Origin: an uncultured Candidatus Saccharibacteria bacterium
GTDB lineage: Bacteria > Patescibacteriota > Minisyncoccia > Phycocordibacterales > Zambryskibacteraceae
Direction of reading: 5' to 3'
NCBI GenBank assembly: GCA_964516975.1
Contig: CAZFAS010000001.1
Span: forward strand, 18,823 to 82,822
DNA length: 64,000 bases
Made by a program: the position numbers and the translations under genes. The notes beneath the pieces were generated by a model. It was not told the DNA's origin. It worked only from the letters and a program-made list of their open reading frames with translations, and did no database searches. Shown here piece after piece: positions 8,184 through 20,029 of the stretch. Position 1 is the stretch's first letter. Every line of letters starts with the position of its first letter.

Positions 8184-8672
8184 TTAGCGAACAACCTCCA
8201 GTGCCGTTGTTCTAGGTATCGATGGCTCAGTTGTTGAGGCGATAACATGAACTCTCCCATTCGATTCTACGTATACTTGATAGCCAGTATCGTTTCCTGA
8301 AGCTGATGTTGGGTCTGAGGGCATAATAGACATATACATTGGTACTAAACATGAGAGATCTATGCCTGTTCCAGCGCCATTTGATATTTGCTGAGCGCTG
8401 GCAGGTAAAGTTGGGCAACTAATACTTGCAGTTGGAGAGTTGAATACTCCTTTGTTGTCTGCCATTCTCTGCCCAATAGCATTCAAAATAGTATTGATGT
8501 TGCTGTGTCTTTGAGAATCTCTTGCTTGAGCAAACTGTCGTGCTGGGTTAATAGCAACTATAACGATAGCAGCAAGTACTGCTATGATTCCAATAACAAC
8601 AAGAATTTCAATAAGTGTAAACCCTTTTGAGCCAACTTTTTTTGATACAGCTGGCTTATGAAAGATATTCAT
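8184..8672 (-). CDS. type IV pilin / pseudopilin (prepilin-type N-terminal cleavage/methylation domain)
   Basis: Prepilin motif ...GSKG|FTLIEILVVIGIIAVLAAI, and a C-terminal Cys pair (the disulfide loop). The ATG at 8672 is preferred. The track start at 8705 is a GTG that adds 11 aa to the leader. Confidence 0.8.
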   Translation of the reverse strand: MNIFHKPAVSKKVGSKGFTLIEILVVIGIIAVLAAIVIVAINPARQFAQARDSQRHSNINTILNAIGQRMADNKGVFNSPTASISCPTLPASAQQISNGAGTGIDLSCLVPMYMSIMPSDPTSASGNDTGYQVYVESNGRVHVIASTTEPSIPRTTALEVVR

Positions 8673-8811
8673 ATATTTGGTATAATTTAATAAATAAGTA
8701 CTCACATGTACTTGTGAACACTGTATACCAATGATTACCTGAGTTCAAGGAAATCAGAATTTGCCAAGTATGAAAGAATATGTGTTATTTATATACTAAA
8801 TAAACTAATAT

Positions 8812-9054
8812 ATGAAAAAGACAATGTGTGAAAGCTGTATGATGCCGTTCGATAAAGATACTGGTGTGCGTGAATCAGATAAATATTGCAGCCTTTGTTT
8901 TAAGAACGGGAAACTATGTTATGAGGGAAATGATTTGAAGGAGTTTCAAGCGGTATGTTACAAAAGTATGAGGTCAAGGGGAATAGGTTTACTCAAAGCA
9001 AAATTATTTACTTTTATGATACGATTTGCTCCACGCTGGAAAAATAATACCTAG
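8812..9054 (+). CDS. small zinc-ribbon domain protein
   Basis: N-terminal CxxC...CxxC pattern (MKKTMCESCMMPF...KYCSLCFKNGKLCY). Confidence 0.45.
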   Translation: MKKTMCESCMMPFDKDTGVRESDKYCSLCFKNGKLCYEGNDLKEFQAVCYKSMRSRGIGLLKAKLFTFMIRFAPRWKNNT

Positions 9055-9109
9055 TTATTTTTTATAGCATTGTCTATCGAAATCAAGTAATTCAGCATAT
9101 AATATTTAT

Positions 9110-9508
9110 ATGAAAGGATATAAACAAAATATTGAATCAGTTGTGCGTGAAAATTCTGATTTCCGAAGAGTTTTATATACAAGCAAGTTTAGCCAGTTAG
9201 TTGCTATGAGTCTTTTGCCATTAGAGGAAATTGGTTTAGAGGTTCATGAAACAAATGATCAGTTTTTTCGATTTGAGAGCGGAGTTGGCAAAGTAATTAT
9301 CAATGAAAACGAATATGATGTTGCTGATGGGGATGCAGTTATAGTACCCGCAGGAAGTAAACACAATGTGATAAATACATCTACTGATCAAAGTCTTAAG
9401 TTATATACTATATATTCTCCTGCACACCATAAAGATGGGATTGTTCGTGCAACAAAACATGAAGCTGAACAGGATGGCCCAGAATTTGATGGAGTGACAA
9501 CAGAATAG
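9110..9508 (+). CDS. cupin-fold small protein
   Basis: GDAVIVPAGSKHNVINTS is a cupin motif-2-like strand. 132 aa, beta-rich. Confidence 0.6.
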   Translation: MKGYKQNIESVVRENSDFRRVLYTSKFSQLVAMSLLPLEEIGLEVHETNDQFFRFESGVGKVIINENEYDVADGDAVIVPAGSKHNVINTSTDQSLKLYTIYSPAHHKDGIVRATKHEAEQDGPEFDGVTTE

Positions 9509-9509
9509 T

Positions 9510-10475
9510 ATGAAAAAAAAATCCAAAGGATATACAACACTAACGCTAGTACTTGTGAGTGCATTTGTTATTGCTATAGGAGTTTTCTTTTATATGAGAT
9601 CCGGTAATTCAGAAAACGCTCTTCTTAAAAAACAGGCGGATTTGAAAGCTCAACTTGCAAATGCAAAGTCAAAGCTTGGAAATGAGAAAGATAAGTTAAA
9701 TGATGCAGAAAAGGCTTTTCGTGTAGCATTTCCATTTTATGACTTTGTAGATGATCAGCTTGTTGCAATGAATCAGGCAGTAAATAGAACTGATGTACTT
9801 TTTCAAAATCCACTGACAGAAAATCCAGTATTAAAAATAAAGACAAGTAATCCAGAAGTACAAAAGAATATTGAAGATAAGAGAACGATAATAAATGAGA
9901 TTCTTCAGGATTGGAGAAGTAGGGTTGATGTAACACTTGCTGGGAAAATAGATAAGGCAACACTTGATCAATTAAAAAAGGATTCGCTCACTATAGAGTC
10001 GTATGTAAATGATTTAAATGCATATGTTGATTCACTTACTCCTGCAAACTCCGGACTCTCACAGTCTCAGATTCAAAGTTATCAGCAAATGATTGACTCT
10101 GTTATTCAGGAAATTAAAGATGCGATTAATTCCATAGATACAACTGGTAGTACTCTTCAGAATCCTGATCCAAGTGCTCAGCAAAATGTTCAATCCCCAA
10201 CAACTCAACAAACAGTAGTGAATAATGCTCAAGCAGAGGTTACTTTTATTGAGCAACAACTAGCTAATGTTGAAGCTCAAATAGATGCAAGTAATCAAAA
10301 TGATCCACAGTCACAAAATCAAACTCCAGTAGATCAAACTCAGCCCACAGTAGGGGACCAAAGCACTGACAATTCAAATGCAACAGATACTGGGACAACA
10401 ATCTTTTTCCCAACACAACCAATCAATGTAACCCCAGGCGCCCCTCGACTTATACAGGGTACAAATAAGGACTAG
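9510..10475 (+). CDS. membrane-anchored coiled-coil, Gln-rich protein (hypothetical)
   Basis: Its start overlaps the cupin stop by 1 nt. The N-terminus is a hydrophobic anchor that is pilin-like but lacks E5. It continues with a long helical KQADLKAQLANAKSKL... region and a Q/T/N-rich low-complexity tail. Confidence 0.5.
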   Translation: MKKKSKGYTTLTLVLVSAFVIAIGVFFYMRSGNSENALLKKQADLKAQLANAKSKLGNEKDKLNDAEKAFRVAFPFYDFVDDQLVAMNQAVNRTDVLFQNPLTENPVLKIKTSNPEVQKNIEDKRTIINEILQDWRSRVDVTLAGKIDKATLDQLKKDSLTIESYVNDLNAYVDSLTPANSGLSQSQIQSYQQMIDSVIQEIKDAINSIDTTGSTLQNPDPSAQQNVQSPTTQQTVVNNAQAEVTFIEQQLANVEAQIDASNQNDPQSQNQTPVDQTQPTVGDQSTDNSNATDTGTTIFFPTQPINVTPGAPRLIQGTNKD

Positions 10476-10529
10476 TATAATACTAAGATAGTATTGACAA
10501 ATACATTAAATTATGTATAATTTTTTATT

Positions 10530-11438
10530 ATGCAAATAATTAGATCAGCTGCCTTTTCTGTGCAAATAGGGGCACCAGAAACAATACTTAATTTTCAGGA
10601 ATATAGCCAATTTAAATATGGGCATAAGCCTACCATTTTGAAATTTGCTAAAAAAATGGTTGATGGGTTGTTTGCGATTATGCCAATTTCTAAATTAATA
10701 AAAAATAATCAGGATATAGTGATTATCACATCTCCATTCTGGCATACCCCACCGTCAGTATATCCACTTGCACTTGAGGTACATAAATTAATTAATGAGA
10801 AGCTTTTGGATAATAAAGCAAATGCAATTAAGTTCGTTAAGATTAGCCGCTCATCTGCACCATCTTGTGATTTTAGTAAGTTAACCGTTGAAGAAAGAAA
10901 ACTTAATATGCAAAGGAATAAGCTTTCTATTGATGAAGATTCTGTGAGAGATAAGACTGTTATTTTTATTGAAGATGCGAGAATTACAGGCGCGCATGAA
11001 GAAAAAACCATTGTCTGTTTAGAACAGGCGGGGGCAAAAAAGGTCATTTTGCTTTACCTTATTGATGTTAAAAATGGAAAAAATGACCCTGATATTGAAA
11101 ATAGATTAAACCATGCCGTGATTAATTCAATTGATGAATTGTATAAATTAATGAGAAAACCTGATGAATATGTTTTAAACAGCCGTTCTGTTCGTTTTGT
11201 CTTATCTTGGGCTGATCATAAGGAACTTAAAAAGTTTTTTGCAAAAATTTCCTCGGTTATTTTAGATGAACTATACAGTGCGTCTATTACCGATGGGTAT
11301 GGACTTATGGAGAAATATGCGCAAGGATTCGAATTGTTACGTGCAGAGGTCAAAAGTAGAAACAAACAACAACTTGTACCTAGTCTCATAAATAAGGCAA
11401 ATGCTTTTATCAAGAAAGCATACGTCTTAACATTCTAG
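10530..11438 (+). CDS. phosphoribosyltransferase (PRTase)-fold protein, paralog A
   Basis: Degenerate PRPP-binding loop KTVIFIEDARITGAHE. It shares motifs with the ORF at 12140 (QEYSQFKYGHKP vs QAYSKFKYGD; DARITGAHEEK vs DIRITGTGERK; YGLMEKYAQGFELL vs YSVLSKYGQSYGLL). Confidence 0.5.
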   Translation: MQIIRSAAFSVQIGAPETILNFQEYSQFKYGHKPTILKFAKKMVDGLFAIMPISKLIKNNQDIVIITSPFWHTPPSVYPLALEVHKLINEKLLDNKANAIKFVKISRSSAPSCDFSKLTVEERKLNMQRNKLSIDEDSVRDKTVIFIEDARITGAHEEKTIVCLEQAGAKKVILLYLIDVKNGKNDPDIENRLNHAVINSIDELYKLMRKPDEYVLNSRSVRFVLSWADHKELKKFFAKISSVILDELYSASITDGYGLMEKYAQGFELLRAEVKSRNKQQLVPSLINKANAFIKKAYVLTF

Positions 11439-11442
11439 TTAT

Positions 11443-12135
11443 ATGAATACAATCACATGTGTTTGTTTTGATGTCTGGAACACGATTTTACAAAGTAATC
11501 CAGATTTCAAAAAACAAAGAATTCAAATTATTGCAGAGGCGTTTTCTTCTGAACCGTCTATAATTGCAAAAATTGCAAATGAAATCGATATCGAATTCGA
11601 TAAGATTACTGATCTCACTGGTCGGGATTTTAATTGTGCCGATAGATTAAAATTGATTGCTTCGAAACTTAAAAAGGATTCGTATTGTAATGAAGAGTTT
11701 TTGAAACAATTGGAGGATAATATCGATCAAGCTTTTTTGCGATTTCTACCTTCTCTCAAAAGTGATGATGTGATCATTGCGCTTGAACAACTTAAACAGA
11801 AGAACGTGACTATTTGTTTGTTGAGTAATACGGGTTTTATTAGTGGGGTATACATGAGAAAAGCACTTGGTCTGCTTGGAGTTATGAAATTTGTTGATTA
11901 TTCATTTTTTTCAGATGAAATCAAAATTGCAAAGCCAAACCCAGAAATATTTGCTTTTGTGACTCGTACAATGGGTTGCATGCCATATAACGTGTTGCAT
12001 GTTGGAGATAATGTTCTAGCTGATTATGAAGGAGCCATAAAATTTGGTATGAACGCTTTGCTTCTGAATACAAAAGAGACCATTTCAAACAGCGCAACTA
12101 TACATTCACTATCTGAGCTTCTTGTAAAAATATAA
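11443..12135 (+). CDS. HAD-superfamily hydrolase
   Basis: Motif I-like CFDVWNTIL, motif II LLSNTG, and motif III/IV K...GDNVLADYEGAIKFGMNALLL. The second motif-I Asp is replaced (DVWNT). Confidence 0.65.
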   Translation: MNTITCVCFDVWNTILQSNPDFKKQRIQIIAEAFSSEPSIIAKIANEIDIEFDKITDLTGRDFNCADRLKLIASKLKKDSYCNEEFLKQLEDNIDQAFLRFLPSLKSDDVIIALEQLKQKNVTICLLSNTGFISGVYMRKALGLLGVMKFVDYSFFSDEIKIAKPNPEIFAFVTRTMGCMPYNVLHVGDNVLADYEGAIKFGMNALLLNTKETISNSATIHSLSELLVKI

Positions 12136-12139
12136 AATT

Positions 12140-13012
12140 ATGAACAGTCTAAAACAAAGTATATTGGCTTTATCTACTCTGCACATTGAACAAGGCACGG
12201 TTTATGATGAAGAAGGTAATGTGTTTGATGCGCAGGCGTATAGTAAGTTTAAGTATGGTGACGCAAGGGAGGCGGAGCGTTATGGTATTAAACTTGCACA
12301 AGAGTTTATTAAACAAAATCAAGATATTTTTTTAGGTGAAGACCATGAAACAAATTTTATAATTGCCGAGCATCCTCGTAAGTATATTCTCAAGGGAGCA
12401 AATGTTATTTCTCGACATTTTCAAAACTATTTGAATTTATATCTGGTATCAAACGGAAAGAACCCAATTATGTCAGTCCCTATATTTATGAGCTCTGTTT
12501 TTGAAGGGGATTACGGAACCTTTGATAAGGTAATTCGGGACAAGGTTATGAGTAAACAACAGTTTTTTACATCAACAGAATTATTTCAAAATAAACACAT
12601 CATATTAGTGGATGATATCCGGATTACAGGAACAGGGGAAAGGAAGATCGCATCATTTTTAGAAGAGTTGAATCCTGAGAGTGTTCACTTCTTGTATGTT
12701 GCAAAATTAAATCAAAACCAAGCAGATAGTAATCCAGAAATTGAAAGTCTGATTAACCATGTTTGGATGAATGATCCAGAAAGACTTATAGAAATCATGA
12801 ATACAGACTATTTTGCACTAAACGCACGGGTTGCAAAACATGTACTTACTCTTAATGGTCAAACACTTGTTCAATTTCTTTCAAAAATAACAGACACGCG
12901 TATTAAAGAATTATATTTTGCAGTTATCTCTGATGGTTACTCAGTTTTGTCAAAATATGGTCAATCTTATGGTCTATTGGAATATGAGTTTAATAAACGT
13001 TTTCGGAATTAA
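12140..13012 (+). CDS. phosphoribosyltransferase (PRTase)-fold protein, paralog B
   Basis: Good type-I PRTase PRPP loop KHIILVDDIRITGTGE. Paralog of the ORF at 10530..11438. Confidence 0.55.
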   Translation: MNSLKQSILALSTLHIEQGTVYDEEGNVFDAQAYSKFKYGDAREAERYGIKLAQEFIKQNQDIFLGEDHETNFIIAEHPRKYILKGANVISRHFQNYLNLYLVSNGKNPIMSVPIFMSSVFEGDYGTFDKVIRDKVMSKQQFFTSTELFQNKHIILVDDIRITGTGERKIASFLEELNPESVHFLYVAKLNQNQADSNPEIESLINHVWMNDPERLIEIMNTDYFALNARVAKHVLTLNGQTLVQFLSKITDTRIKELYFAVISDGYSVLSKYGQSYGLLEYEFNKRFRN

Positions 13013-13037
13013 AGCAAATAAAAGGTTAAAAATAACC

Positions 13038-13065
13038 TTGACAAATCCTTATAATCTGCTATAAT
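13038..13065 (+). promoter_or_regulatory. sigma-70-like promoter (TTGACA, 16-nt spacer, TATAAT) at the low-GC/high-GC boundary upstream of terC
   Basis: Exact consensus hexamers at 13038-13043 and 13060-13065. An ~85-nt leader with a hairpin (acgcgtgtctca...tgagcacgcgt) precedes the terC ATG. Confidence 0.5.
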
Positions 13066-13156
13066 ACCGCTAGATTTACTGATGGAACCTTGAATGCCGC
13101 GTGTCTCATTTTGAGCACGCGTATGTGGGAAAACAACAACTCCTGGGAGGAACCCG

Positions 13157-14038
13157 ATGGACGCTGTTCATGGCCTCATCACGAACTTCATGACTCATCT
13201 GCCCTCGGCGGCGGAGCTCATGAGTGCAGTGCCAGTGATTCTGTCATTGGTGTTGATCGAGGGCTTGCTCTCGGTAGATAATGCCATGGCGATTGCCGCC
13301 ATGGCTTCGGTGTTACCGAAGAACAAGCAGAAGCTCGCACTTCGGCTGGGTATCATCGGAGCGTACGCGTTTCGCGGTATTTCGCTGGGGTTCGTCGCGT
13401 TCATCGCGGAGAACCACTGGCTGAAGTTCGCTGGTGCCTGCTATCTGGTGTACCTCATGTGCCATGGGCTTCTCATTGAGGAGTCTGAAGACGAGGGTAG
13501 TCATGGGACTGTGGTGCAGAAGTCGATGTTGGTCACGATCATACAGATCGAGATCATGGATCTCTCGCTTTCGCTTGATAATGTTGTCGCTGCAGTAGCG
13601 ATGGACAAGCGATTGTGGGTGGTGTGCACGGGTGTCTTCATCGGCATCTTAGCCTTGCGGTTCATCGCGGGCTACTGCATTCGACTCATCGAAAGGTTCC
13701 CGATCTTGAAAAAGACGGCGTTCCTCTTGATTGGGTTCGTCGGCGCAATCTTGGCCTTCGAGCTCACGATGGACATGGTAAATAACCATGTCGAAGTCAC
13801 GAGCTTCGAGAAGTTCCTCGGCATCATCACGATCACTACGATGTCTCTGCTCTACGGCCACACGGTCGCGGGACGCAAGTGGCTTGGCCCGGTTGTCACG
13901 ATCGGGATGCCGGCTGTCGTCGTTCTGAACAAGGTGTTGTCATATGCTTTGTTGCCGTTTGAGATGGTCTTTGTGGGTCTCAAGAAGACCTACAAGTTCA
14001 TCACTGGCGGCGACAAACCCCACACGCACGTCGCGTAG
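13157..14038 (+). CDS. terC: TerC-family integral membrane protein
   Basis: Duplicated TerC signature (EGLLSVDNAMAIAAMAS and DLSLSLDNVVAAVAM), about 7 TM helices, RBS GGGAGG. GC-rich codon usage. Confidence 0.8.
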   Translation: MDAVHGLITNFMTHLPSAAELMSAVPVILSLVLIEGLLSVDNAMAIAAMASVLPKNKQKLALRLGIIGAYAFRGISLGFVAFIAENHWLKFAGACYLVYLMCHGLLIEESEDEGSHGTVVQKSMLVTIIQIEIMDLSLSLDNVVAAVAMDKRLWVVCTGVFIGILALRFIAGYCIRLIERFPILKKTAFLLIGFVGAILAFELTMDMVNNHVEVTSFEKFLGIITITTMSLLYGHTVAGRKWLGPVVTIGMPAVVVLNKVLSYALLPFEMVFVGLKKTYKFITGGDKPHTHVA

Positions 14039-14191
14039 TAGACGAATGGAAGCGTAAGCTTCCCGGAATACTCTGGGTGAGTCCGTTAAGCTCACCCTCT
14101 TTAACGAGAATCTGATCGAATGATCGGAACCTCGTAGAGAGCAATGGTGCTTTCTATGTTCGTTGAAAACTTCAACCATAGGTAAATCGAC

Positions 14192-15385
14192 ATGGGCAAG
14201 CCAACTGTGTTTGGCCTGACCTCGGTGCGGCCGGTACTTGACGCAAGTCAAGCAAACCTGCCAGTGCCAGTGAGTCAGATCGACACTGGCGCTATCGTGC
14301 TCAAGGAAGCTCAGCTTCCCGATGCCGAACAGCGCCTTGCGAAACTCGACTTCCGGTCGATTTCGCAAGCTGAGATCGTCACGATCGGTCTTCCGGAGGA
14401 ACAGCACCTTTCCACAACTCTCGATGGTTTCATGGCTCGTCTTAACAGGACTGATGCCAAGGAAACATTCGAACTCTTCACGCAAGTGAAGAAGGGAGTG
14501 GAAGATGCGAAACTTCCGGAGATAATCGAGAAGATTCAGAGTCCTGTGGAGCCTGGTATGTTTGCCAAGTTCACAGGTATGTTTCGCGGGAAGTCCGCGT
14601 CACAACTCAAAGACGAGTTGTTCAAGTCGATCAGTGACATGATTACTGGTCGCACAAAGACACTCGCCGATCTTCTCGCCAAGATGGAAGGGGAGATCAA
14701 GAGTAAACTCGCAGGTCTCCTTTCCGAACTTCAAGTGCAACAGCGCTTGAAGGAAAGCTACCTGATTCACTTTGGTGAATTCACGGTAGCTGCGGCGGTT
14801 GCGCGGGCCTTCCTTGAGAAGGCTCGTGCGGACGTTGCAGAAGAAGAAGCGACACTCGCTGCAAATCCGACGGATTCCGTGCAGCAAGCACGAGTCCAGG
14901 AGTTGCAGTCGAAGTTGGTTTTGCTCGAATCAAGGGCGCTTGCGCTCGAAGGGACGTACACTCGTTTGCCTGCAGACGCGCTGGTCATCCAGCAGTTGCA
15001 GCAAGCAGGTGTGAGTACGGTTCAGGAAGTTGCTACCACAATGAACCAGCGATTGTCATCCATCAAGATGACATTGTTGGCCATCAACGGCACGTTTCAA
15101 ATTCAAGGTGTGCAGATGCTCGCAGAGCGTTCTGCCACCATGGATCAGCAGTTGCTCGATGCACGCGGTCAGCTTTTGAAGCAGGTCGCGGGTACCGCAG
15201 CAGCTGCGCCCGGCAACAACCGCTTGGCTCAGGCCAAGCAGATCGAATCGGTTATCGCGCAGGTGCGTGAAGTCGATGAGATTGTCACCAAGGCACGTGA
15301 AGAATCAACCCAGAGGATGGCGGAGGCACGGACAAGTTTCGCTGCCGCCCGTCAGGAGCTCGCACGACTCGGCTCAGGCAACTGA
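14192..15385 (+). CDS. telA: TelA-family (toxic anion resistance) all-alpha protein
   Basis: Length and motif order match TelA: MFAKFTGMFRGKSASQL, then IDxI.....L-type helices, YLIHFGEFTVAAAVARAFLE, LESRALALEGTYTRLPADALVIQQLQQ. GC-rich. Confidence 0.6.
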   Translation: MGKPTVFGLTSVRPVLDASQANLPVPVSQIDTGAIVLKEAQLPDAEQRLAKLDFRSISQAEIVTIGLPEEQHLSTTLDGFMARLNRTDAKETFELFTQVKKGVEDAKLPEIIEKIQSPVEPGMFAKFTGMFRGKSASQLKDELFKSISDMITGRTKTLADLLAKMEGEIKSKLAGLLSELQVQQRLKESYLIHFGEFTVAAAVARAFLEKARADVAEEEATLAANPTDSVQQARVQELQSKLVLLESRALALEGTYTRLPADALVIQQLQQAGVSTVQEVATTMNQRLSSIKMTLLAINGTFQIQGVQMLAERSATMDQQLLDARGQLLKQVAGTAAAAPGNNRLAQAKQIESVIAQVREVDEIVTKAREESTQRMAEARTSFAAARQELARLGSGN

Positions 15386-15444
15386 TCGAGTGTTGTAGAA
15401 GTTTCCCTGTAGTTTATCGAAGTTCACTCAACTGGAGAATTCAC

Positions 15445-16056
15445 ATGGCGCTCAACCTGCCCCTTTCGAAGCCTGGCGACACTCATGTTCCGCTGAAGCT
15501 CAACCTTGCAAAGGGTGAACGCTTCACGGTCGAGCTCGCCTGGGACTCCAAGCACGACTTGGACGCGCACTGCCTCCTCATGGAGGATACGGGCGCGGGC
15601 AACAAGGTCACCTCGATGGAGAAAGTGCTTAGCACGTATAACAGCAGGAAGACCAACCGCAGTGGTGTGCTCGTGACGAACCCGAACGGTTCGTTCAGCA
15701 CGCCGTGCGGTTCGCTCACTCACTCGGGTGATGCTCGCGACGGTACCCTCACGGGTGTCGACGAGACCATCACTATCGAGGGGTCGAAAGTCCCCATGAA
15801 CATCGTCGAGATTCCGATCTTCGTCACGATTCATCCCGCATCGAGCGGGTTGTTCAAGGACGTGAAGGAAGCGACGATCAAGATCAAGGACGACAGCGGC
15901 AAGGAGCTTTGCTCTTTCCGTCTCACGTCCGAGTTCGCCAGCTTCAATGCTGTGCAGATGGGCTCGCTTCTGGTCGGCGCTAACGGCTGGGAGTTCTCAG
16001 CGGTCGGTGTCGGCTTCAACGGCGATTTCAACTCAGTCCTCGGGTCCTTTTCCTGA
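15445..16056 (+). CDS. terD: TerD-domain protein (tellurium-resistance TerD/TerE/TerZ family)
   Basis: Strong colinear match to TerD: LAKGERFTV, ELAWDS, DLDAHCLLM, LTHSGDARDGTLTGVDETITIEGSKVP...VEIPIFVTIH (Ca-binding GDN-type loop), WEFSAVGVGFNG. RBS GGAGAA. Confidence 0.85.
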   Translation: MALNLPLSKPGDTHVPLKLNLAKGERFTVELAWDSKHDLDAHCLLMEDTGAGNKVTSMEKVLSTYNSRKTNRSGVLVTNPNGSFSTPCGSLTHSGDARDGTLTGVDETITIEGSKVPMNIVEIPIFVTIHPASSGLFKDVKEATIKIKDDSGKELCSFRLTSEFASFNAVQMGSLLVGANGWEFSAVGVGFNGDFNSVLGSFS

Positions 16057-16068
16057 TACGGAGGCTAG

Positions 16069-17190
16069 ATGATGCCGGAGGAGAATTCAAACCTCTCCTC
16101 CGGCATCACGCCCGAGGAGAGGAAAGGGCCAACAGTCATTAAGACTGGAGGCCAAGAACGGAAACCGACTGTTATGGGAGGAGGGCAAACACCCACCTCC
16201 GTAACGCCGGCAGCACACAAACCAACGGTTATTACGGTCGGTGAACAACCTATCGAAAAACCTGAGGCGAAGGTAGTAAAGGCGAGTGTGATAGTTCCGC
16301 CAGTGGTAACAACGGTGAAAACCAATGTACTACATGGTGGCTCTCAACCTACGACGATGATCGGTTCGAAACGGAAGCGGCTTGCCGTGACGTTTGCAGA
16401 ACTTGAATCAAAGAATGTAGGGACAGAACATGAAGTGCTCAACGCTGCACTTGATCTTATCTTGATCACAAATCTTGATGAGTTAAGTGATAGAGATGTC
16501 GTGATGTGGGGGCATGAACTCCAACATCGCTTCGCAGGGCATGTCACTGAATGTCTCACACTCAGTCAGTCGGAGGATCTCAAAAACACGAGTCGTAACT
16601 TGTCTCGCATGTTGGAGATTCTTGAGTCAATCGATCTTCAAGCGGTATTCGTACCGCAAGGGGGTATTCTTTCTCGCTTCATGGCGAGATCGAACAAAAA
16701 GATTGACACCATCGAGGAACTTAAATTGGCTTGCGAAGAGATTCAACAGCTGATCGTGTTGCTCGATAAACGTCTCGATGGACTGCTGACACTCAAAGGA
16801 GATCTCGACACAGTGTCGAGAAAGATTGAGAGTGTTGGTAAGGAAATTGAGATGTCGATGATTGCAGCGTTGTATCTTGCAGATTATTTGTCACAAGGAG
16901 CTGATGCGAACCCTGTTCTCTCGCAACGCTTTGCGGAGCGAGGAATGAGTTTGACTCAGTCACTTGTACAAATTCGTACGAGCAGCTCGATGAGAGATAT
17001 TCAAATCGAGCAACCCCTTGCCATGATTGGAAGGGTGCAGGACGTAGCACTCGTTTTGGTTCCTGGTTTGATCGGGACAATCACATCTCTCAAGATGATG
17101 ACCGAACAAAATCAGAAACCAACAGTGACGACCGTCACTGAACTCGCAGACCAACTTGGACATATCGTCCAAAAACTCGGAGGTAGGTAG
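16069..17190 (+). CDS. TelA-like helical protein with an N-terminal Pro/Thr-rich KPTV tandem repeat
   Basis: Residues 20-75 carry three copies of an [RK]KPTV[IM]xxG(G)xQ motif. The remainder resembles the central TelA region (GGILSRFMARSNKKIDTIEEL...LLDKRLDGLLTLKGDLD...MIAALYLADYL). Confidence 0.4.
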   Translation: MMPEENSNLSSGITPEERKGPTVIKTGGQERKPTVMGGGQTPTSVTPAAHKPTVITVGEQPIEKPEAKVVKASVIVPPVVTTVKTNVLHGGSQPTTMIGSKRKRLAVTFAELESKNVGTEHEVLNAALDLILITNLDELSDRDVVMWGHELQHRFAGHVTECLTLSQSEDLKNTSRNLSRMLEILESIDLQAVFVPQGGILSRFMARSNKKIDTIEELKLACEEIQQLIVLLDKRLDGLLTLKGDLDTVSRKIESVGKEIEMSMIAALYLADYLSQGADANPVLSQRFAERGMSLTQSLVQIRTSSSMRDIQIEQPLAMIGRVQDVALVLVPGLIGTITSLKMMTEQNQKPTVTTVTELADQLGHIVQKLGGR

Positions 17191-17952
17191 ATGGCGCTCA
17201 GCCTCGATCTCAACAAGGCAGCTGCAAAGCTGTCGCTCGACCTCACCAAGAAGGGGGTCGACATGACCCAGATCTCTGCGGAGGTATCCTTCTGTCTTGA
17301 CGTTTCCGGTAGCTATCAGGACGAGCAGGAAGATGGTTCTACGCAGAAGTTACTCGAGCGGCTCGTGCCGTGGAGCATGGTGCTCGATCCGGACAAGCAG
17401 ATGGACGTGTTCACCTTCAGCAATGGTGAGGAAAACGCTCACCACGCTGGCATGATCACCCCGCAGACCGTCGACGGATTCATTCGCCGTAGTGTCATTG
17501 GCCGGGTTCCCGGATACGGCGGTGGTACGGACTACTCGTACGTGCTCGAGAAGAACCTTCGTCACTTCGGATGGTTGCCCAAGGCTTCGTCCGAGGCTCC
17601 CAAGAAGGGGATGTTCGGAGGACTGTTCGGTGGATCGAAGCCTGCATCGCAGGTGGCGGTCGCCAAGCGTCGCTCGTTGGTGATTTTCAACACCGACGGC
17701 GAAAACAACGACAAGTCACGAGTGACGCGCGTACTCGAGGAGTCCGAGCGTCGCAGCGATCTGGTGTACTTCCTCTTCATCGCGTATGCGAATGGAGGGG
17801 GCAAGTTCCCGTTCCTGCAGGAGATCGGCGATCGTTTCAGCAACACCGGGCTCGTGGTCATCAACGACATCAATCGTTGGTGTGCCCAGCCCGATGACGT
17901 GATCAACGAGCAGCTCATTGGCGAAGAACTCGTCGCATGGTTGAAGAAGTAA
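17191..17952 (+). CDS. von Willebrand factor A (vWA) domain protein, Ter-associated type (TerY / TerF-C-like)
   Basis: MIDAS DxSGS (CLDVSGSY) and a second metal-site segment LVIFNTDGENND. The ATG overlaps the previous stop, so the two genes are translationally coupled. Confidence 0.65.
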   Translation: MALSLDLNKAAAKLSLDLTKKGVDMTQISAEVSFCLDVSGSYQDEQEDGSTQKLLERLVPWSMVLDPDKQMDVFTFSNGEENAHHAGMITPQTVDGFIRRSVIGRVPGYGGGTDYSYVLEKNLRHFGWLPKASSEAPKKGMFGGLFGGSKPASQVAVAKRRSLVIFNTDGENNDKSRVTRVLEESERRSDLVYFLFIAYANGGGKFPFLQEIGDRFSNTGLVVINDINRWCAQPDDVINEQLIGEELVAWLKK

Positions 17953-17992
17953 AGCTCTTTCGATAGAGTGACCTTCGGGTTACTCTATCAAA

Positions 17993-18021
17993 GCGGCGCA
18001 CGTAAGTGTGCCGCTTTTTTT
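17993..18021 (+). terminator. rho-independent terminator closing the Ter island (preceded by a second hairpin at about 17962-17990)
   Basis: gcggcgcacgtaagtgtgccgc followed by TTTTTTT. Confidence 0.65.
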
Positions 18022-18143
18022 GACTTGGAAAGAAAAGTCTGGTATGTTTTTTTGAGTTCTTTACATCGAGAGATTGATAACCCTGCTCGGCACAGGTTTA
18101 TCACAGTGTCATTTGCCGAAACCCGCATGGAGCGTAACCGTAC

Positions 18144-18803
18144 ATGAGATGCTACACTTTCGCTGGTGGGGAATTCAAGCCTGGTATTGATGTAATTCAA
18201 GACCAGGGCACACATGCAATCCTTCTCGGTGACAAAATCGCTGAGCGAGGAGAGCGACTTCTTCTTCACCTTGATCAGGTGAATCTTCCCGAACTGAAGG
18301 ATGGAATGGTACATGAAGCTTCTCTCACTGAGAGATTTTTCATGGGAACCAACCACACTGTCATTTCAGGATCACCGTCATCTGAAAAGGGTGTCATTAT
18401 TCGTGCCAATGCAAGCACGAATGCAAAGTCGCGTGTTGCATGTCGAAGTGGTATCTTCCTGAAAAAAGGAGATCAAAAGGCCTCAATCCCGACAGAAATT
18501 GCTTCAGGACTTGTTCCTCATTTTTCTGAAGATGAGGAATTCATTGGCTTCGCTGTCGATGGTGTCTTTCAGCTTTTGGAGGGTACCCATCTTGTGGTAA
18601 GGCCATTTGGTGTCAAACATGATGACTATGAAAAGCAGATTGTCATCGTGTGTAGGATTGAGGATGGAATCGCTATCGCGAAGAAGTATTCATTTGCTAA
18701 GTTTCGCGAGTCTGTAAGGAAGTCGACTCCGATTACTGTGGTGGATGATCACAGGAATCATCCTCTTCGTATGACTAGGCTCCAAGCAACTTCTGTGCAC
18801 TAA
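18144..18803 (+). CDS. hypothetical protein (intermediate GC)
   Basis: 219-aa ORF with no recognised motif. A strong terminator follows. Confidence 0.4.
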   Translation: MRCYTFAGGEFKPGIDVIQDQGTHAILLGDKIAERGERLLLHLDQVNLPELKDGMVHEASLTERFFMGTNHTVISGSPSSEKGVIIRANASTNAKSRVACRSGIFLKKGDQKASIPTEIASGLVPHFSEDEEFIGFAVDGVFQLLEGTHLVVRPFGVKHDDYEKQIVIVCRIEDGIAIAKKYSFAKFRESVRKSTPITVVDDHRNHPLRMTRLQATSVH

Positions 18804-18813
18804 TCTCTCGAAA

Positions 18814-18852
18814 CGCCCCGTCCCGCAAAACTGCGGGACGGGGCTTATTTTT
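18814..18852 (+). terminator. rho-independent terminator (cgccccgtcccgc / gcgggacggggc)
   Basis: 12-bp GC stem followed by TTATTTTT. Confidence 0.7.
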
Positions 18853-19189
18853 ACAAAATTATCTGGTCAATCTTTGAAGCAAGTATGTAATCATTGTCAG
18901 AGAGTCCTCCGATAGCATGTGTAGTTAGAGAAAGTTTTACTTTATTCCATCCAAAAAGAAGAATATCCGGATGATGATTTTCTTGTTCTGCGATTTCTGC
19001 GACTTTGTTTATGAATTGGATAGCTTGTGCGAAATCTTTAAAAAGTAATATTTTTTCTATAGAAATGTCTTCATTCAAGTGCCATTCATTAATTCTCTTT
19101 AGGTGTTCAAGATTACTTGGTGTACTAAACTTCGGTACGTTTCCTTCACAAGGGACACAATGCTTTTGGTAGAGAGGAATATCACTCAT
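18851..19189 (-). CDS. pterin-4a-carbinolamine dehydratase (PCD/DCoH)
   Basis: EWHLNEDISIEK, ENHHPDILLFGWNKVKLSLTTHAIGGLSDNDYILASKID (the HHPD catalytic motif). Its ATG overlaps the LOG stop (TAATG). Confidence 0.75.
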   Translation of the reverse strand: MSDIPLYQKHCVPCEGNVPKFSTPSNLEHLKRINEWHLNEDISIEKILLFKDFAQAIQFINKVAEIAEQENHHPDILLFGWNKVKLSLTTHAIGGLSDNDYILASKIDQIIL

Positions 19190-19947
19190 TATTCGATTGG
19201 GTTAACTTTGAGTCCATCATAAGGAAGCATTCTGCGTATTGGAGCATTTTTAATTAATGAAATAATTTCGGTATCATCCTCAATGATATGAAAAAGATCT
19301 AGATCTTCAGCTTCGATCGTTCCACGAGAAAGTAATGTATGTTTGAAAAACTCGAGTACTTCTGTCCAATAGTCCTTACCAACAAGGATGACAGGAACTC
19401 TCGGAACTTTATGTGTTTGGAGTAATGTGACTATTTCTGCGAATTCATCGAGAGTTCCGAATCCTCCAGGGAAGAAAAGGAATGCCTCTGCAGAATATGC
19501 AAGACACACCTTTCTACTAAAGAAATAATAAAAATCCACATGATTTGTTAAGTATTGATTCATCACTTGCTCTCGAGGTAATCGGATTGTAAGTCCGATA
19601 GAGTTTCCTCCCGCTTCTTTTGCGCCTCGGTTTGCAGCTTCCATGATCCCAGGACCACCTCCACTTACAACTGTGTAGCCGAGATCCTTGACTATCCTTT
19701 TTGCCAATTCACGAGCATGAATATAGTACGGATGATCCTCTTTGAATCGTGTTGAACCAAAGAATGTTACTGATCTTGGGTAGCCTTCTAGAAACTGGAA
19801 TCCCTGACTGAATTCTCGGGATATTTCATAAATGCGTTCTACTGTTGCTTCCTGCATATCCGCAATACTAATAGGGTTTGGAGTCAGGAATTTTGTTGAA
19901 ATGTTTACAATTTTTTGTTCGTCCATGTATCTATAGTAGTCTCTCAA
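19189..19947 (-). CDS. LOG-family protein (TIGR00730; cytokinin-riboside-5'-phosphate phosphoribohydrolase-like Rossmann fold)
   Basis: VTFFGSTRF, GYTVVSGGGPGIMEAANRGA and PGGFGTLDEFAEI are LOG signatures. Confidence 0.8.
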   Translation of the reverse strand: MRDYYRYMDEQKIVNISTKFLTPNPISIADMQEATVERIYEISREFSQGFQFLEGYPRSVTFFGSTRFKEDHPYYIHARELAKRIVKDLGYTVVSGGGPGIMEAANRGAKEAGGNSIGLTIRLPREQVMNQYLTNHVDFYYFFSRKVCLAYSAEAFLFFPGGFGTLDEFAEIVTLLQTHKVPRVPVILVGKDYWTEVLEFFKHTLLSRGTIEAEDLDLFHIIEDDTEIISLIKNAPIRRMLPYDGLKVNPIE

Positions 19948-20029
19948 AAGCTCTTTTGCAATAAAATGTCAGTCTTTTACATTTAGTCTGTCATTGTTAT
20001 ACTAGTGTCATACAATATAAATATTTACT

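Follow-up and report, generated by a model that had tools for sequence, protein, structure and literature searches.

A PRTase_3–HAD–PRTase_3 gene triad beside Ter genes in a Saccharibacteria genome is a duplicated form of the enzyme module that accompanies Ter systems

Ter systems are widespread among plasmids, pathogens and phages, and the nucleoside-like product predicted for them has, to our knowledge, never been identified. The accompanying enzymes were described by Anantharaman, Iyer & Aravind (2012) as a module whose two-enzyme form consists of a phosphoribosyltransferase (PRTase) and a HAD hydrolase; in the five-enzyme form these are joined by another PRTase, an ATP-grasp enzyme and a TIM-barrel lyase. 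Two summaries of that study (PMC11994780, PMC7824862) have the biosynthetic module always include the PRTase and the HAD and predict its product to be a pyrimidine-derived ribonucleoside, and TerB is said to accompany the module nearly always (PMC11994780). A comparable two-step chemistry has been shown experimentally for the Haemophilus influenzae b (Hib) capsule, where the PRPP-using transferase CriT is followed by the HAD 5-phosphatase CrpP (PMC10299916).

In the window (the whole 64,000-nucleotide stretch of DNA analysed here, from an uncultured Candidatus Saccharibacteria bacterium), three open reading frames separated by 4-nt gaps, PRT_A, HAD and PRT_B, precede genes for TerC, a 397-aa protein (p397), TerD, a 373-aa weakly TelA-like protein (p373) and a TerF-type vWA protein, in that order (Table 1). 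The initial annotation had described a co-directional PRTase–HAD–PRTase triad running into a terC promoter with Ter genes downstream, and this description was upheld: the three frames lie on one strand, a perfect sigma-70 site separates PRT_B from terC, and TerC, TerD and the vWA-TerF-like protein were all recognised by Pfam. The triad is a real, conserved, duplicated form of the known Ter-accompanying enzyme module. As the PRTase family concerned, PF15610, was, we take it, built from Ter-associated operons, the core interpretation of the triad was already known, and it is supported here.

Table 1. Features of the triad and the adjoining Ter block, in window coordinates.
Feature	Coordinates	Strand	Match or remark
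Promoter-like site P1, TTGACA–16 nt–TATAAT, 12/12, just 5' of PRT_A	10494..10521	+	
PRT_A, A-type PRTase_3 paralogue, 302 aa	10530..11438	+	PF15610 E 1.3e-33
HAD-IA hydrolase, 230 aa, C1 helical cap	11443..12135	+	PF00702/PF13419 E 1.5e-16
PRT_B, B-type PRTase_3, 290 aa	12140..13012	+	PF15610 E 4.4e-44
Promoter-like site P2, TTGACA–16 nt–TG-TATAAT, 12/12, low-GC part of spacer before terC	13038..13065	+	
TerC family membrane protein, YkoY subtype, 293 aa, GC3 0.75	13157..14038	+	PF03741 E 7.5e-44
p397, helical Ala-rich protein	14192..15385	+	First gene of conserved 4-gene cassette
TerD domain protein, 203 aa, GC3 0.79	15445..16056	+	PF02342 E 2.5e-24
p373, possibly distant TelA-like	16069..17190	+	PF05816 TelA E 1.2e-4, below cut-off
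vWA protein, TerF C-terminal type, 253 aa	17191..17952	+	PF10138 E 9.2e-16
Intrinsic-terminator-like hairpin, 12 pairs then T run, closing the Ter block	17990..18017	+	

Both PRTases matched PF15610 (PRTase_3, PRTase ComF-like; 264 profile positions) above its gathering cut-off of 28.7 bits, PRT_A with 117 bits over positions 19-263 and PRT_B with 151.3 bits over positions 12-258. They share 28% identity over ~270 residues (BLASTP E 1e-29), which excludes chance resemblance and makes them true paralogues, as had been proposed from their PRPP loops and shared flanking motifs; both loops were found. The loop of PRT_A, VIFIEDARITGAHE (residues 144-157, nt 10959-11000), holds the acidic pair E148-D149, and that of PRT_B, IILVDDIRITGTGE (residues 154-167, nt 12599-12640), carries D158-D159 and T163-G164, which are invariant or nearly so; both proteins retain an acidic pair and a TG loop, along with nine residues that do not vary in the family. 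PRT_B has an N-terminal YSKFKYG motif and a family-specific C-terminal helical extension (~residues 200-290); its AlphaFold2 model (pLDDT 92.4, pTM 0.90) shows the core of a type I PRTase and was matched best by PyrR and HGPRT in Foldseek (E ~1e-5). PRT_A, where SCDF replaces the family GDYG motif, belongs to a distinct A-type clade; wherever the neighbours of A-type genes were readable a B-type copy was present, with the A-type gene always upstream of its partner. By family score both proteins are PF15610 members, the type I fold is that of the PRT_B model, and transferase activity is predicted. The initial annotation had pointed to TRSP-type PRTases for comparison, and on this point it is corrected: Pfam gave PRTase_3 (ComF-like) only, and TRSP/PRTase_2 and PRTase_1 identities were rejected. 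A literature search by the PF15610 family names found no paper and no assayed member.

The hydrolase encoded between them, for which the best NCBIfam match was DREG-2/CTE7, has motif I F-D10-V-W12-N-T14 (nt 11470-11484), with Trp at the position of the second Asp. The altered motif I (DVWNT) noted earlier is therefore confirmed, and it is family-wide, D-x-W-x-T being the family signature and invariant in every complete member examined; when motif conservation was measured in two sets of 75 and 61 relatives, Trp12 was invariant (75/75 and 59/59). Asp10 and Thr14 of the phosphatase pattern DxDx(T/V) are present, and the pattern itself is broken by Trp12 at the +2 position. Motifs II (S128-N-T130), III (K164-P) and IV (G-D189-N-x-x-A-D194) of the superfamily were all found, together with the Rossmannoid core and cap, and the nucleophile Asp, S128-N-T130, K164, D189 and D194 are invariant in the 75 Ter-linked relatives. 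The AlphaFold2 model (pLDDT 95.7, C1 cap) has 2om6 as its nearest solved structure (TM 0.83); the next folds are L-2-haloacid dehalogenases, which counts against a phosphatase mechanism, and the lack of the general acid/base Asp may make ordinary phosphomonoester hydrolysis slow or dependent on another residue. The Mg2+-binding Asp189 of motif IV is kept, and retention of this Asp is atypical of dehalogenases. With 46 bits where TIGR01428 demands 125.4, an identity as L-2-haloacid dehalogenase was rejected. In two sister clusters (L014 and L016) the HAD is replaced by a canonical DxD HAD-IIB enzyme, and for this reason phosphatase is the most likely predicted role of the window enzyme. The proposal that it is not a standard phosphatase thus stands for the catalytic detail, Trp12, and probably fails for the role, given the DxD HAD-IIB substitutes and the retained metal and phosphate motifs.

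A genome scan with a 10-sequence alignment yielded 84 loci other than the window. The PRTase was adjoined by a HAD in 74 of the 84 and had Ter-family genes (TerD, TerC, TelA or vWA) within 10 kb in 71, and the 13 loci with no recognised Ter gene were mostly on short contigs; the linkage spans three phyla and phages. In Capnocytophaga L021, the sole full-length non-Ter locus examined, no gene of purine or pyrimidine salvage adjoins the pair, and no homologous locus examined sits among salvage genes, so that the co-occurrence with Ter genes on which the earlier reading depended was borne out. The 8-gene order is found again in at least five further lineages (L007, L095-L097, L012, L013, L014, L148), where the flanking genes differ, and no housekeeping genes, sought to calibrate divergence, were shared by the window and the flanks of related loci. 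In Bacteroidota, Flavobacterium and Chryseobacterium among them, a HAD–PRTase_3 pair is flanked on both sides by TerD genes. Two phage records, one of a Phapecoctavirus, carry a HAD-PRTase_3-macro-TerC...TelA block, and PRT_B has relatives in 157 phage records. The 201-aa gene 5' of the phage HAD was considered as a hidden PRTase and rejected, with no similarity (hhalign E 0.21). Natural fusions include an 841-aa protein (P0004) with the order PRTase_3-HAD-PRTase_3 as in the window, HAD-PRTase_3 proteins (P0005 and P0006 by Pfam; P0007, P0009 and P0015, with the same two parts, by sequence) and double PRTase_3 single chains (P0008, P0016). At two loci, L093 and L047, the Ter-specific C-C bond lyase (PF15617) and an ATP-grasp enzyme (PF15632) stand beside two PRTase_3 genes and a HAD, which connects the triad with the five-enzyme module of the literature; the ATP-grasp and lyase are also present in the relative L039.

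Among the Ter genes, TerC scored 178 bits with TIGR03716 (cut-off 138.5). p397 gave no family match, and orthologues of it were found in every relative of the cluster as well as on GC-rich contigs; its identity as TelA was unsupported (hhalign E 0.046), and BLASTP found no significant similarity between p397 and p373. A comparison of p373 with Bacteroidota TelA (hhalign E 8.8e-4, probability 23%) weakly suggests a distant TelA-like protein. P1 and P2 are the only perfect (12/12) matches among 20 sigma-70-like sites in positions 9000-20000 (11 kb), a total that shows no excess over shuffles, and the P2 element ACCTTGACAAAT...TATA(A/C)T is kept at the equivalent place in L007 and L014. P1 probably drives the enzymes and P2 the Ter genes, both being predicted strong promoters; no terminator-like site was found in the spacer between PRT_B and terC, and read-through from the triad into the Ter genes is possible. 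A conserved 5'UTR RNA before terC was rejected, the promoter alone being conserved, as was a riboswitch there, considered for the YkoY-subtype TerC: an Rfam search of 9000-20000 (E up to 1) returned only a chance Chlorobi-1 match inside p397.

We consider it reasonably likely, at a probability of about 0.6, that the triad, with its two predicted PRTase_3 enzymes and one HAD, is the small-molecule-making arm of a Ter-type stress/defence system. The analysis shows the order of the genes, their families, the predicted folds, the conserved motifs, the conserved linkage and the natural fusions; we infer every chemical step, the acceptor, the product and the product's target. PRT_B, with PRPP and Mg2+, would move the phosphoribosyl group to a base-like nucleophile with release of pyrophosphate, and PRT_A would be either its obligate heteromer partner or a second transferase. 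The HAD would then strip the 5'-phosphate to give a riboside, with Asp10 as nucleophile, Asp189 and Asp194 binding Mg2+, and Trp12 occupying the usual place of the acid/base Asp; the riboside may act on, or be sensed by, the adjacent TerD, TerC, TelA-like and vWA proteins. Some features of the window count against this mechanism, as do the 13 homologous loci where no Ter gene was recognised. No match to TerB was found by Pfam among the ten open reading frames of 9510-18803, and TerB is said nearly always to accompany the module (PMC11994780); in the window cluster Pfam found neither the ATP-grasp enzyme nor the TIM-barrel C-C lyase that would make a special base. With two promoters, the enzymes and the Ter genes might also be regulated separately.

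Other roles for the enzymes were weighed against this small-molecule reading. The PRTase_3 proteins might instead ribosylate a hydroxyl or amine of a metabolite, envelope polymer or protein, with the HAD trimming the 5-phosphate by the CriT/CrpP logic; experiments on the Hib capsule have established this pair of steps (PMC10299916), the window HAD matches the HAD domain of the T. composti ribofuranosyl transferase 7shg (sequence E 4.9e-8, Foldseek E 1.8e-12), the window cluster encodes no base-making enzymes, and a macro domain adjoins PRTase_3 in phages. We nevertheless judge it unlikely, as the PRTase_3 fold resembles base-using type I PRTases (PyrR, HGPRT) and is unlike CriT, and the conserved neighbourhoods hold no glycan or envelope biosynthesis genes. 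It is similarly doubtful that one paralogue, most likely PRT_A, is non-catalytic and serves as a regulatory or ligand-sensing subunit, as PyrR does for RNA and nucleotides, leaving a single transferase reaction. Type I PRTases work as dimers, and that habit would suit such a subunit, as would the pairing of A-type genes with a following B-type gene wherever readable, the A-B and A-HAD-B fusions, the standing of PyrR as best structural match of PRT_B, and SCDF in place of GDYG; however, PRT_A keeps the acidic pair (E-D, like HGPRT), the R-I-T-G loop and the nine invariant residues, which argues for activity.

Saccharibacteria are generally considered salvage-dependent, and this presumed dependence, along with weak matches that fall below the thresholds of the APRT, HGPRT, OPRT-like and Prs models, would fit ordinary nucleotide salvage by two salvage PRTases and a 5'-nucleotidase that lie beside Ter genes by chance. 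Those matches reach just 13-20 bits against cut-offs of 113-296, short of what the equivalog models demand, whereas Ter linkage holds at 71/84 loci in three phyla and phages, the full-length non-Ter locus L021 has no salvage genes beside its pair, and the PRTase_3 family motifs and helical tail are missing from salvage enzymes, all of which makes the salvage explanation very improbable. A role as ComFC-like DNA-uptake factors, or as a ShosT-like toxin that depletes PRPP or nucleotides, appears more remote again. The Pfam name 'ComF-like', a weak TIGR00201 comF match (E 5e-4), weak PADLOC ShosT matches (E 9e-5 to 5e-4) and a nearby type IV pilin-like gene (8184-8705) speak for it, but the comF match reaches ~20 bits where 233.55 are required, the surveyed neighbourhoods showed neither a ComFA helicase nor a DprA-like ShosA partner, and it is a HAD rather than a helicase that constantly accompanies the PRTases. 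As a known defence system the locus was rejected, PADLOC having given only the weak ShosT matches, which reflect the common PRTase superfamily.

The composition of the locus changes sharply between its two parts. The three triad genes have a GC3 of 0.27, whereas the five Ter genes range from 0.48 to 0.79 and the other genes of the window from 0.17 to 0.42, so that the GC step between triad and Ter block is real; the same split is seen in diverged relatives, and the p397-TerD-p373-vWA cassette occurs on its own on an Agrobacterium plasmid and on contigs of 58-73% GC. In composition the triad resembles the host and the Ter cassette is foreign; together with these occurrences, this supports the assembly from two sources that the initial annotation had put forward. 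We raise, as a speculative and rather unlikely extension, that in Saccharibacteria-type bacteria a resident A/B PRTase_3 heteromer and Trp-for-Asp HAD would make a riboside unlike the classical Ter product, and would also provide a fixed docking site for GC-rich Ter cassettes repeatedly captured from unrelated high-GC bacteria, or else that the cassettes would be held GC-rich by selection in an AT-biased genome. The GC mosaic, kept across diverged genomes, offers a clean case in which to study the attachment of foreign effector cassettes to resident enzymes in reduced genomes. Stripped down to three small enzymes, lacking any that make a base and having natural single-chain fusions among its relatives, the cluster is a convenient start for finding the product in vitro, and the invariant HAD Trp and the A/B PRTase pair are concrete mutant targets. 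The known picture of Ter systems is unchanged by the window cluster.

Several described proteins and loci resemble parts of this cluster. The HAD shares the motif I FDVWNTLL with 2om6 (E 3e-19, TM 0.83), the archaeal P. horikoshii protein PH0253, a structural genomics deposit called 'probable phosphoserine phosphatase' by its title. CriT/CrpP of the H. influenzae b capsule polymerase Bcs3 and the T. composti ribofuranosyl transferase 7shg likewise combine a PRPP-using transferase with a HAD that removes a 5-phosphate (PMC10299916), although CriT has a catalytic fold unlike classical PRTases, a polymer substrate and no Ter linkage, and CrpP is described with the common HAD phosphatase mechanism. 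The phage block (Phapecoctavirus SKA64, Pseudomonas phage PsgM04F) has an identical motif I, FDVWNT, and the order HAD, PRTase_3, TerC, but it differs in its single PRTase and extra macro domain, lacks TerD and vWA genes, and adjoins anaerobic ribonucleotide reductase genes. In Bacteroidota Ter loci a D-x-W-x-T HAD also lies directly 5' of PRTase_3, with the order TerD-HAD-PRTase_3-TerD-TerD-TelA-x-TerD-TerD-vWA-...-TerY_C-PP2C in Flavobacterium; these loci differ by a single PRTase_3, many TerD paralogues, canonical TelA, TerY-type phosphatase and vWA genes, and a uniform composition with no GC step. The HAD differs from that of the enterobacterial ter plasmids: the window HAD matched 98 records, none enterobacterial, whereas TerD matched 2572. 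Like the described Ter module, the window encodes PRTase and HAD together, its PF15610 PRTases and HAD adjoin TerD, TerC, TelA-like and vWA genes, and the linkage is conserved. The second PRTase of the five-enzyme form is present and its ATP-grasp and lyase are absent, as is TerB, and with its two PRTase_3 genes the window cluster stands between the published two-gene and five-gene forms.

Three co-directional, adjacent open reading frames were confirmed on the + strand with 4-nt gaps, and the two proteins flanking the HAD hydrolase are paralogues, as proposed in the initial annotation, with PRT_A and PRT_B sharing 28% identity over ~270 residues (E 1e-29). Both had been read as phosphoribosyltransferase (PRTase)-like and both proved to be members of PF15610, PRTase_3 "PRTase ComF-like", matching the general Pribosyltran model weakly. 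The family is small (633 proteins at E ≤ 0.001 when 1.84 billion cluster representatives were scanned in full with HMMER), and we take it to be one defined from the linkage of PRTase/HAD genes to tellurite-resistance stress (Ter) genes. The features of the cluster are listed below.

Features of the triad, the Ter block and other parts of the window
Feature	Coordinates	Strand	Annotation
Perfect sigma-70 consensus site	10494-10521		just 5' of PRT_A
PRT_A, 302 aa	10530-11438	+	PF15610, E 1.3e-33
HAD-IA hydrolase, 230 aa	11443-12135	+	PF00702, E 1.5e-16
PRT_B, 290 aa	12140-13012	+	PF15610, E 4.4e-44
Perfect sigma-70 consensus site	13038-13065		just 5' of terC
Inverted repeat CGCGTG...CACGCG	~13099-13122		short, in terC 5'UTR
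TerC	13157-14038		YkoY subtype, TIGR03716, 178 bits
p397, 397 aa	14192-15385		without family
TerD	15445-16056		
p373, 373 aa	16069-17190		weak TelA match
vWA protein	17191-17952		TerF type
Strong terminator-like hairpin	17990-18017		closes Ter block
Promoter-like site	18020-18048		of 219-aa orphan
Orphan, 219 aa	18144-18803	+	intermediate GC, 0.45
Strong terminator-like hairpin	18815-18844		with the first hairpin, brackets the orphan
Single ORF, 5524 aa	39385-55959	+	GC2 0.66, GC3 0.17

The sites before PRT_A and terC were the only perfect sigma-70 consensus sites in the 11-kb stretch, and no terminator-like site was found in the gap between PRT_B and terC. TerC belongs to a riboswitch-associated subtype, yet its 5'UTR (13066-13156) matched neither yybP-ykoY nor any other Rfam element at E up to 1, and conservation of the terC upstream region in the homologous loci L007 and L014 was confined to the promoter element ACCTTGACAAAT...TATAAT. 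The 219-aa orphan matched nothing in Pfam, NCBIfam, PHROG or PADLOC. Among the surveyed loci it was present in the near-identical contigs L001-L003 only and absent from related clusters. The window (GC ~38%) also includes a type IV pilin-like gene, and its 5524-aa ORF, with a GC skew of 0.29-0.48 across 41-51 kb, probably encodes a giant repetitive surface protein.

An AlphaFold2 model of PRT_B (pLDDT 92.4, pTM 0.90, from a 19-sequence alignment) agreed with the predicted PRTase fold, its first 150-200 residues resembling type I PRTases when compared with the PDB by Foldseek (top matches PyrR and HGPRT; E ~1e-5, target TM 0.45-0.56) and residues ~200-290 being modelled as a helical extension outside these matches. 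Profile searching of PDB sequences matched the PRPP loop of PurF, HGPRT, APRT and Prs and nothing beyond the loop. Invariant in 40 relatives were S35, K38 and G40 (YSxFKYG motif), R133, D159, G164, E167, E202 and R230. PRT_A groups with its orthologues and with the N-terminal part of the fusion protein P0004 in a distinct A-type clade, and the A-type copy always lay alongside and 5' of the B-type copy wherever neighbours were readable.

The altered motif I noticed in the HAD is real but is not a one-off. The form F-D-h-W-x-T was found in 75 distinct HADs from the surveyed loci, with Asp10, Trp12 and Thr14 invariant, as were S128-N-T130, K164-P and G-D189-N-x-x-A-D194; among 61 further homologues taken from databases, all 59 with a complete N-terminus had the Asp and the Trp. 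The best NCBIfam similarity was to the REG-2-like and CTE7 groups, with scores under their cut-offs. The closest solved structure was 2om6 from Pyrococcus horikoshii (FDVWNTLL, E 3e-19), to which the HAD model (pLDDT 95.7) aligned at TM 0.83, followed by L-2-haloacid dehalogenases, NANP, HDHD3 and the HAD domain of the ribofuranosyl transferase 7shg. Judged by these motifs, the change is confined to the general acid/base position, with everything needed for the aspartyl-phosphate and Mg2+ mechanism kept. At two loci (L014, 3526-4353; L016, 10848-12203) PRTase_3 is partnered by an S6PP-like HAD-IIB protein with canonical DIDDT or DLDDT in place of the D-x-W-x-T HAD-IA, and this non-orthologous displacement argues for dephosphorylation as the partner's role. 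We infer that the window HAD is a phosphatase and that Trp12 is a mechanistic or specificity peculiarity, so that the description "not a standard phosphatase" holds for the acid/base position but probably not for the role.

Linkage to Ter genes was surveyed in 84 loci outside the window (80 from a scan with one genome per species, 4 from exact-protein look-ups and phage records), whose called ORFs were searched with profiles from the window proteins and a Flavobacterium Ter locus. A HAD gene lay directly beside PRTase_3 in 74/84 loci, and one or more genes of the Ter families were found within 10 kb in 71/84, in line with the linkage originally proposed; five of the 13 loci without a Ter gene were contigs of <9 kb. 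In the one full-length exception inspected, Capnocytophaga L021, the pair was flanked by genes for an RmlD-like reductase, a cytochrome c peroxidase and a DUF4130 protein, with no salvage genes beside it. The triad also scored far under the cut-offs of salvage equivalogs and of ComF. Taken together, these results argue against the salvage context that had been named as the competing explanation: that the triad consists of plain salvage enzymes is very improbable, and a ComFC-like or ShosT-like role, against which the ComF score speaks, marginally more so.

The interpretation in the initial annotation was essentially right, and the reading that we favour, with a probability of about 0.6, is the Ter model summarised in the literature, adapted to the triad form. 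The PRTase_3 pair would move 5-phosphoribosyl from PRPP onto a base-like acceptor, the HAD would take off the 5'-phosphate, and the riboside product would act on the neighbouring TerD, TerC, TelA-like and vWA proteins. The order of transferase and HAD phosphatase is the one proven by experiment for CriT/CrpP of the Hib capsule polymerase, where a HAD 5-phosphatase acts after the PRPP-using transferase (PMC10299916). By analogy with CriT/CrpP, the acceptor may be other than a free base, which we consider unlikely here. There is a similarly small chance that PRT_A is a non-catalytic partner, since it retains all family-invariant residues, with an acidic pair E-D in place of D-D.

The nearest relatives of the window cluster are in metagenome-assembled genomes of Saccharibacteria and other Patescibacteria, and the same eight-gene order recurs between wholly different flanks (L007, L095-L097, L012, L013, L148, L014). 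To judge by its pilin-like gene, its 5524-aa ORF and its GC of ~38%, the window itself probably belongs to such a genome. L095-L097 encode HAD and PRT_B as a single 513-aa protein, and the two are fused also in L013 and L148. Among natural single-chain fusions every pairing is represented: PRTase_3-HAD-PRTase_3 in the window gene order (P0004, 841 aa), HAD-PRTase_3 by Pfam (P0005, P0006), HAD and PRTase_3 parts visible in the sequence (P0007, P0009, P0015), double (P0008, P0016) and triple PRTase_3 (P0032, P0038), and PRTase_3 with an S6PP-type HAD (P0055). A rearranged Saccharibacteria cluster (L053, 4664-12435) carries TerD(-), vWA, a PspA/IM30 protein, TerC(-), HAD, a double-PRTase_3 fusion and a third PRTase_3, its TerD having a GC at third codon positions (GC3) of 0.96 vs ~0.42 in the host.

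The proposal that triad and Ter block came from two sources was supported by composition, gene context and phylogeny. Composition breaks at ~13080-13090, about 15-25 nt 3' of the terC promoter, with GC3 of 0.27 in the triad genes, 0.17-0.42 in other window genes and 0.48-0.79 in the Ter genes. The cassette p397-TerD-p373-vWA stands alone on Agrobacterium tumefaciens plasmid pQ15_94_5 (L091, 7759-11507; 391 aa, TerD, 358 aa, vWA; identities to the window 53%, 48%, 36% and 50%), adjoining a CDF transporter and a heavy-metal P-type ATPase close to a type IV secretion locus, which hints at a metal-related role in its GC-rich homes. A metagenome scan with the p397 profile gave 67 loci, ~55 of them contigs of 58-73% GC on which the p397-led cassette was either whole or truncated at a contig end, with no TerC, PRTase_3 or HAD beside it; TerC preceded the cassette on low-GC contigs only (L147, L148), in L148 together with PRTase/HAD genes. 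In a neighbour-joining p397 tree (56 sequences, 388 columns, 100 bootstraps), the clades window + L007 + L095 and L013 + L147 + L148 each appeared in 100% of replicates and Patescibacteria-type sequences were jointly monophyletic in 0/100. The window clade adjoins a large high-GC clade, with rooting unreliable owing to long-branch effects, and we therefore read the direction of transfer from composition alone. These data support the joining of a host-composition enzyme module and its promoters to a cassette at home in GC-rich bacteria.

The same split is seen in L007, L095, L013/L148 and L053, the triad being host-like vs a GC3 of 0.44-0.79 in the Ter genes (window 13157-17952, L007 11005-15860, L095 4794-9615, L013 8753-13812). 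Between window, L007 and L095, per-protein identities were 40-76%. Where residues are conserved, third-base identity at four-fold degenerate sites was 0.23-0.50 observed vs 0.28-0.36 expected from composition for triad genes, and 0.32-0.51 vs 0.25-0.32 for Ter genes, which places the former about at saturation and the latter modestly above; no housekeeping gene common to these loci was available for calibrating divergence. Had the Ter block been gained once, before the lineages split, its codon use should since have drifted to the AT-rich pattern of the hosts. Repeated capture of GC-rich cassettes behind one and the same enzyme module may account for the split; alternatively, something may hold the Ter genes GC-rich.

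Ter-linked blocks differ in form between groups. Flavobacterium, Chryseobacterium and relatives have TerD-HAD-PRTase_3-TerD-TerD-TelA-x-TerD-TerD, then TerY-type vWA and PP2C genes. PRT_B relatives occurred in 157 phage records, chiefly Escherichia phages, and the two inspected, Phapecoctavirus phage SKA64 (L009, 4706-11889) and Pseudomonas phage PsgM04F (L010), both ~150 kb, carry directly 3' of ribonucleotide reductase genes a 201-aa unknown, a HAD with FDVWNT identical to that of the window, PRTase_3, macro domain, TerC, several small ORFs, SprT-like (annotated in SKA64) and TelA. On a Rhizobium leguminosarum plasmid (L092, 8956-11233), PRTase_3 adjoins a 'cysteine protease StiP domain' gene in a region of IS elements, and the plasmid's incomplete gene table lists no HAD between the two genes; StiP is listed in a Bacillus Ter biosynthetic module (PMC11994780). 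On a short 37% GC contig (L008, 116-1694), PRTase_3 overlaps the start of a vWA-TerF-like gene without an intervening HAD, and an AAA/nSTAND3-like ATPase gene follows. The HAD of enterobacterial ter plasmids differs from that of the window, which matched 98 plasmid records, 0 of them enterobacterial (window TerD, 2572 records).

Linkage of PRTase and HAD to Ter genes was already published; added here are the duplicated A/B PRTase_3 form that, with its fusions, is typical of Patescibacteria, the Trp found throughout the HAD family at its acid/base position, and evidence for a Ter effector cassette that is foreign by composition and phylogeny, yet stably attached. Published Ter biosynthetic modules have two or five enzymes, always including PRTase and HAD, with a pyrimidine-derived ribonucleoside as predicted product (PMC11994780; PMC7824862). 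No ATP-grasp, lyase or TerB was found among the window cluster proteins; in L093 and L047, two PRTase_3 genes and a HAD stand alongside the Ter-specific C-C bond lyase (PF15617) and ATP-grasp (PF15632), which links the triad to the five-enzyme module. With its second PRTase, the window triad is intermediate between the two- and five-enzyme forms.
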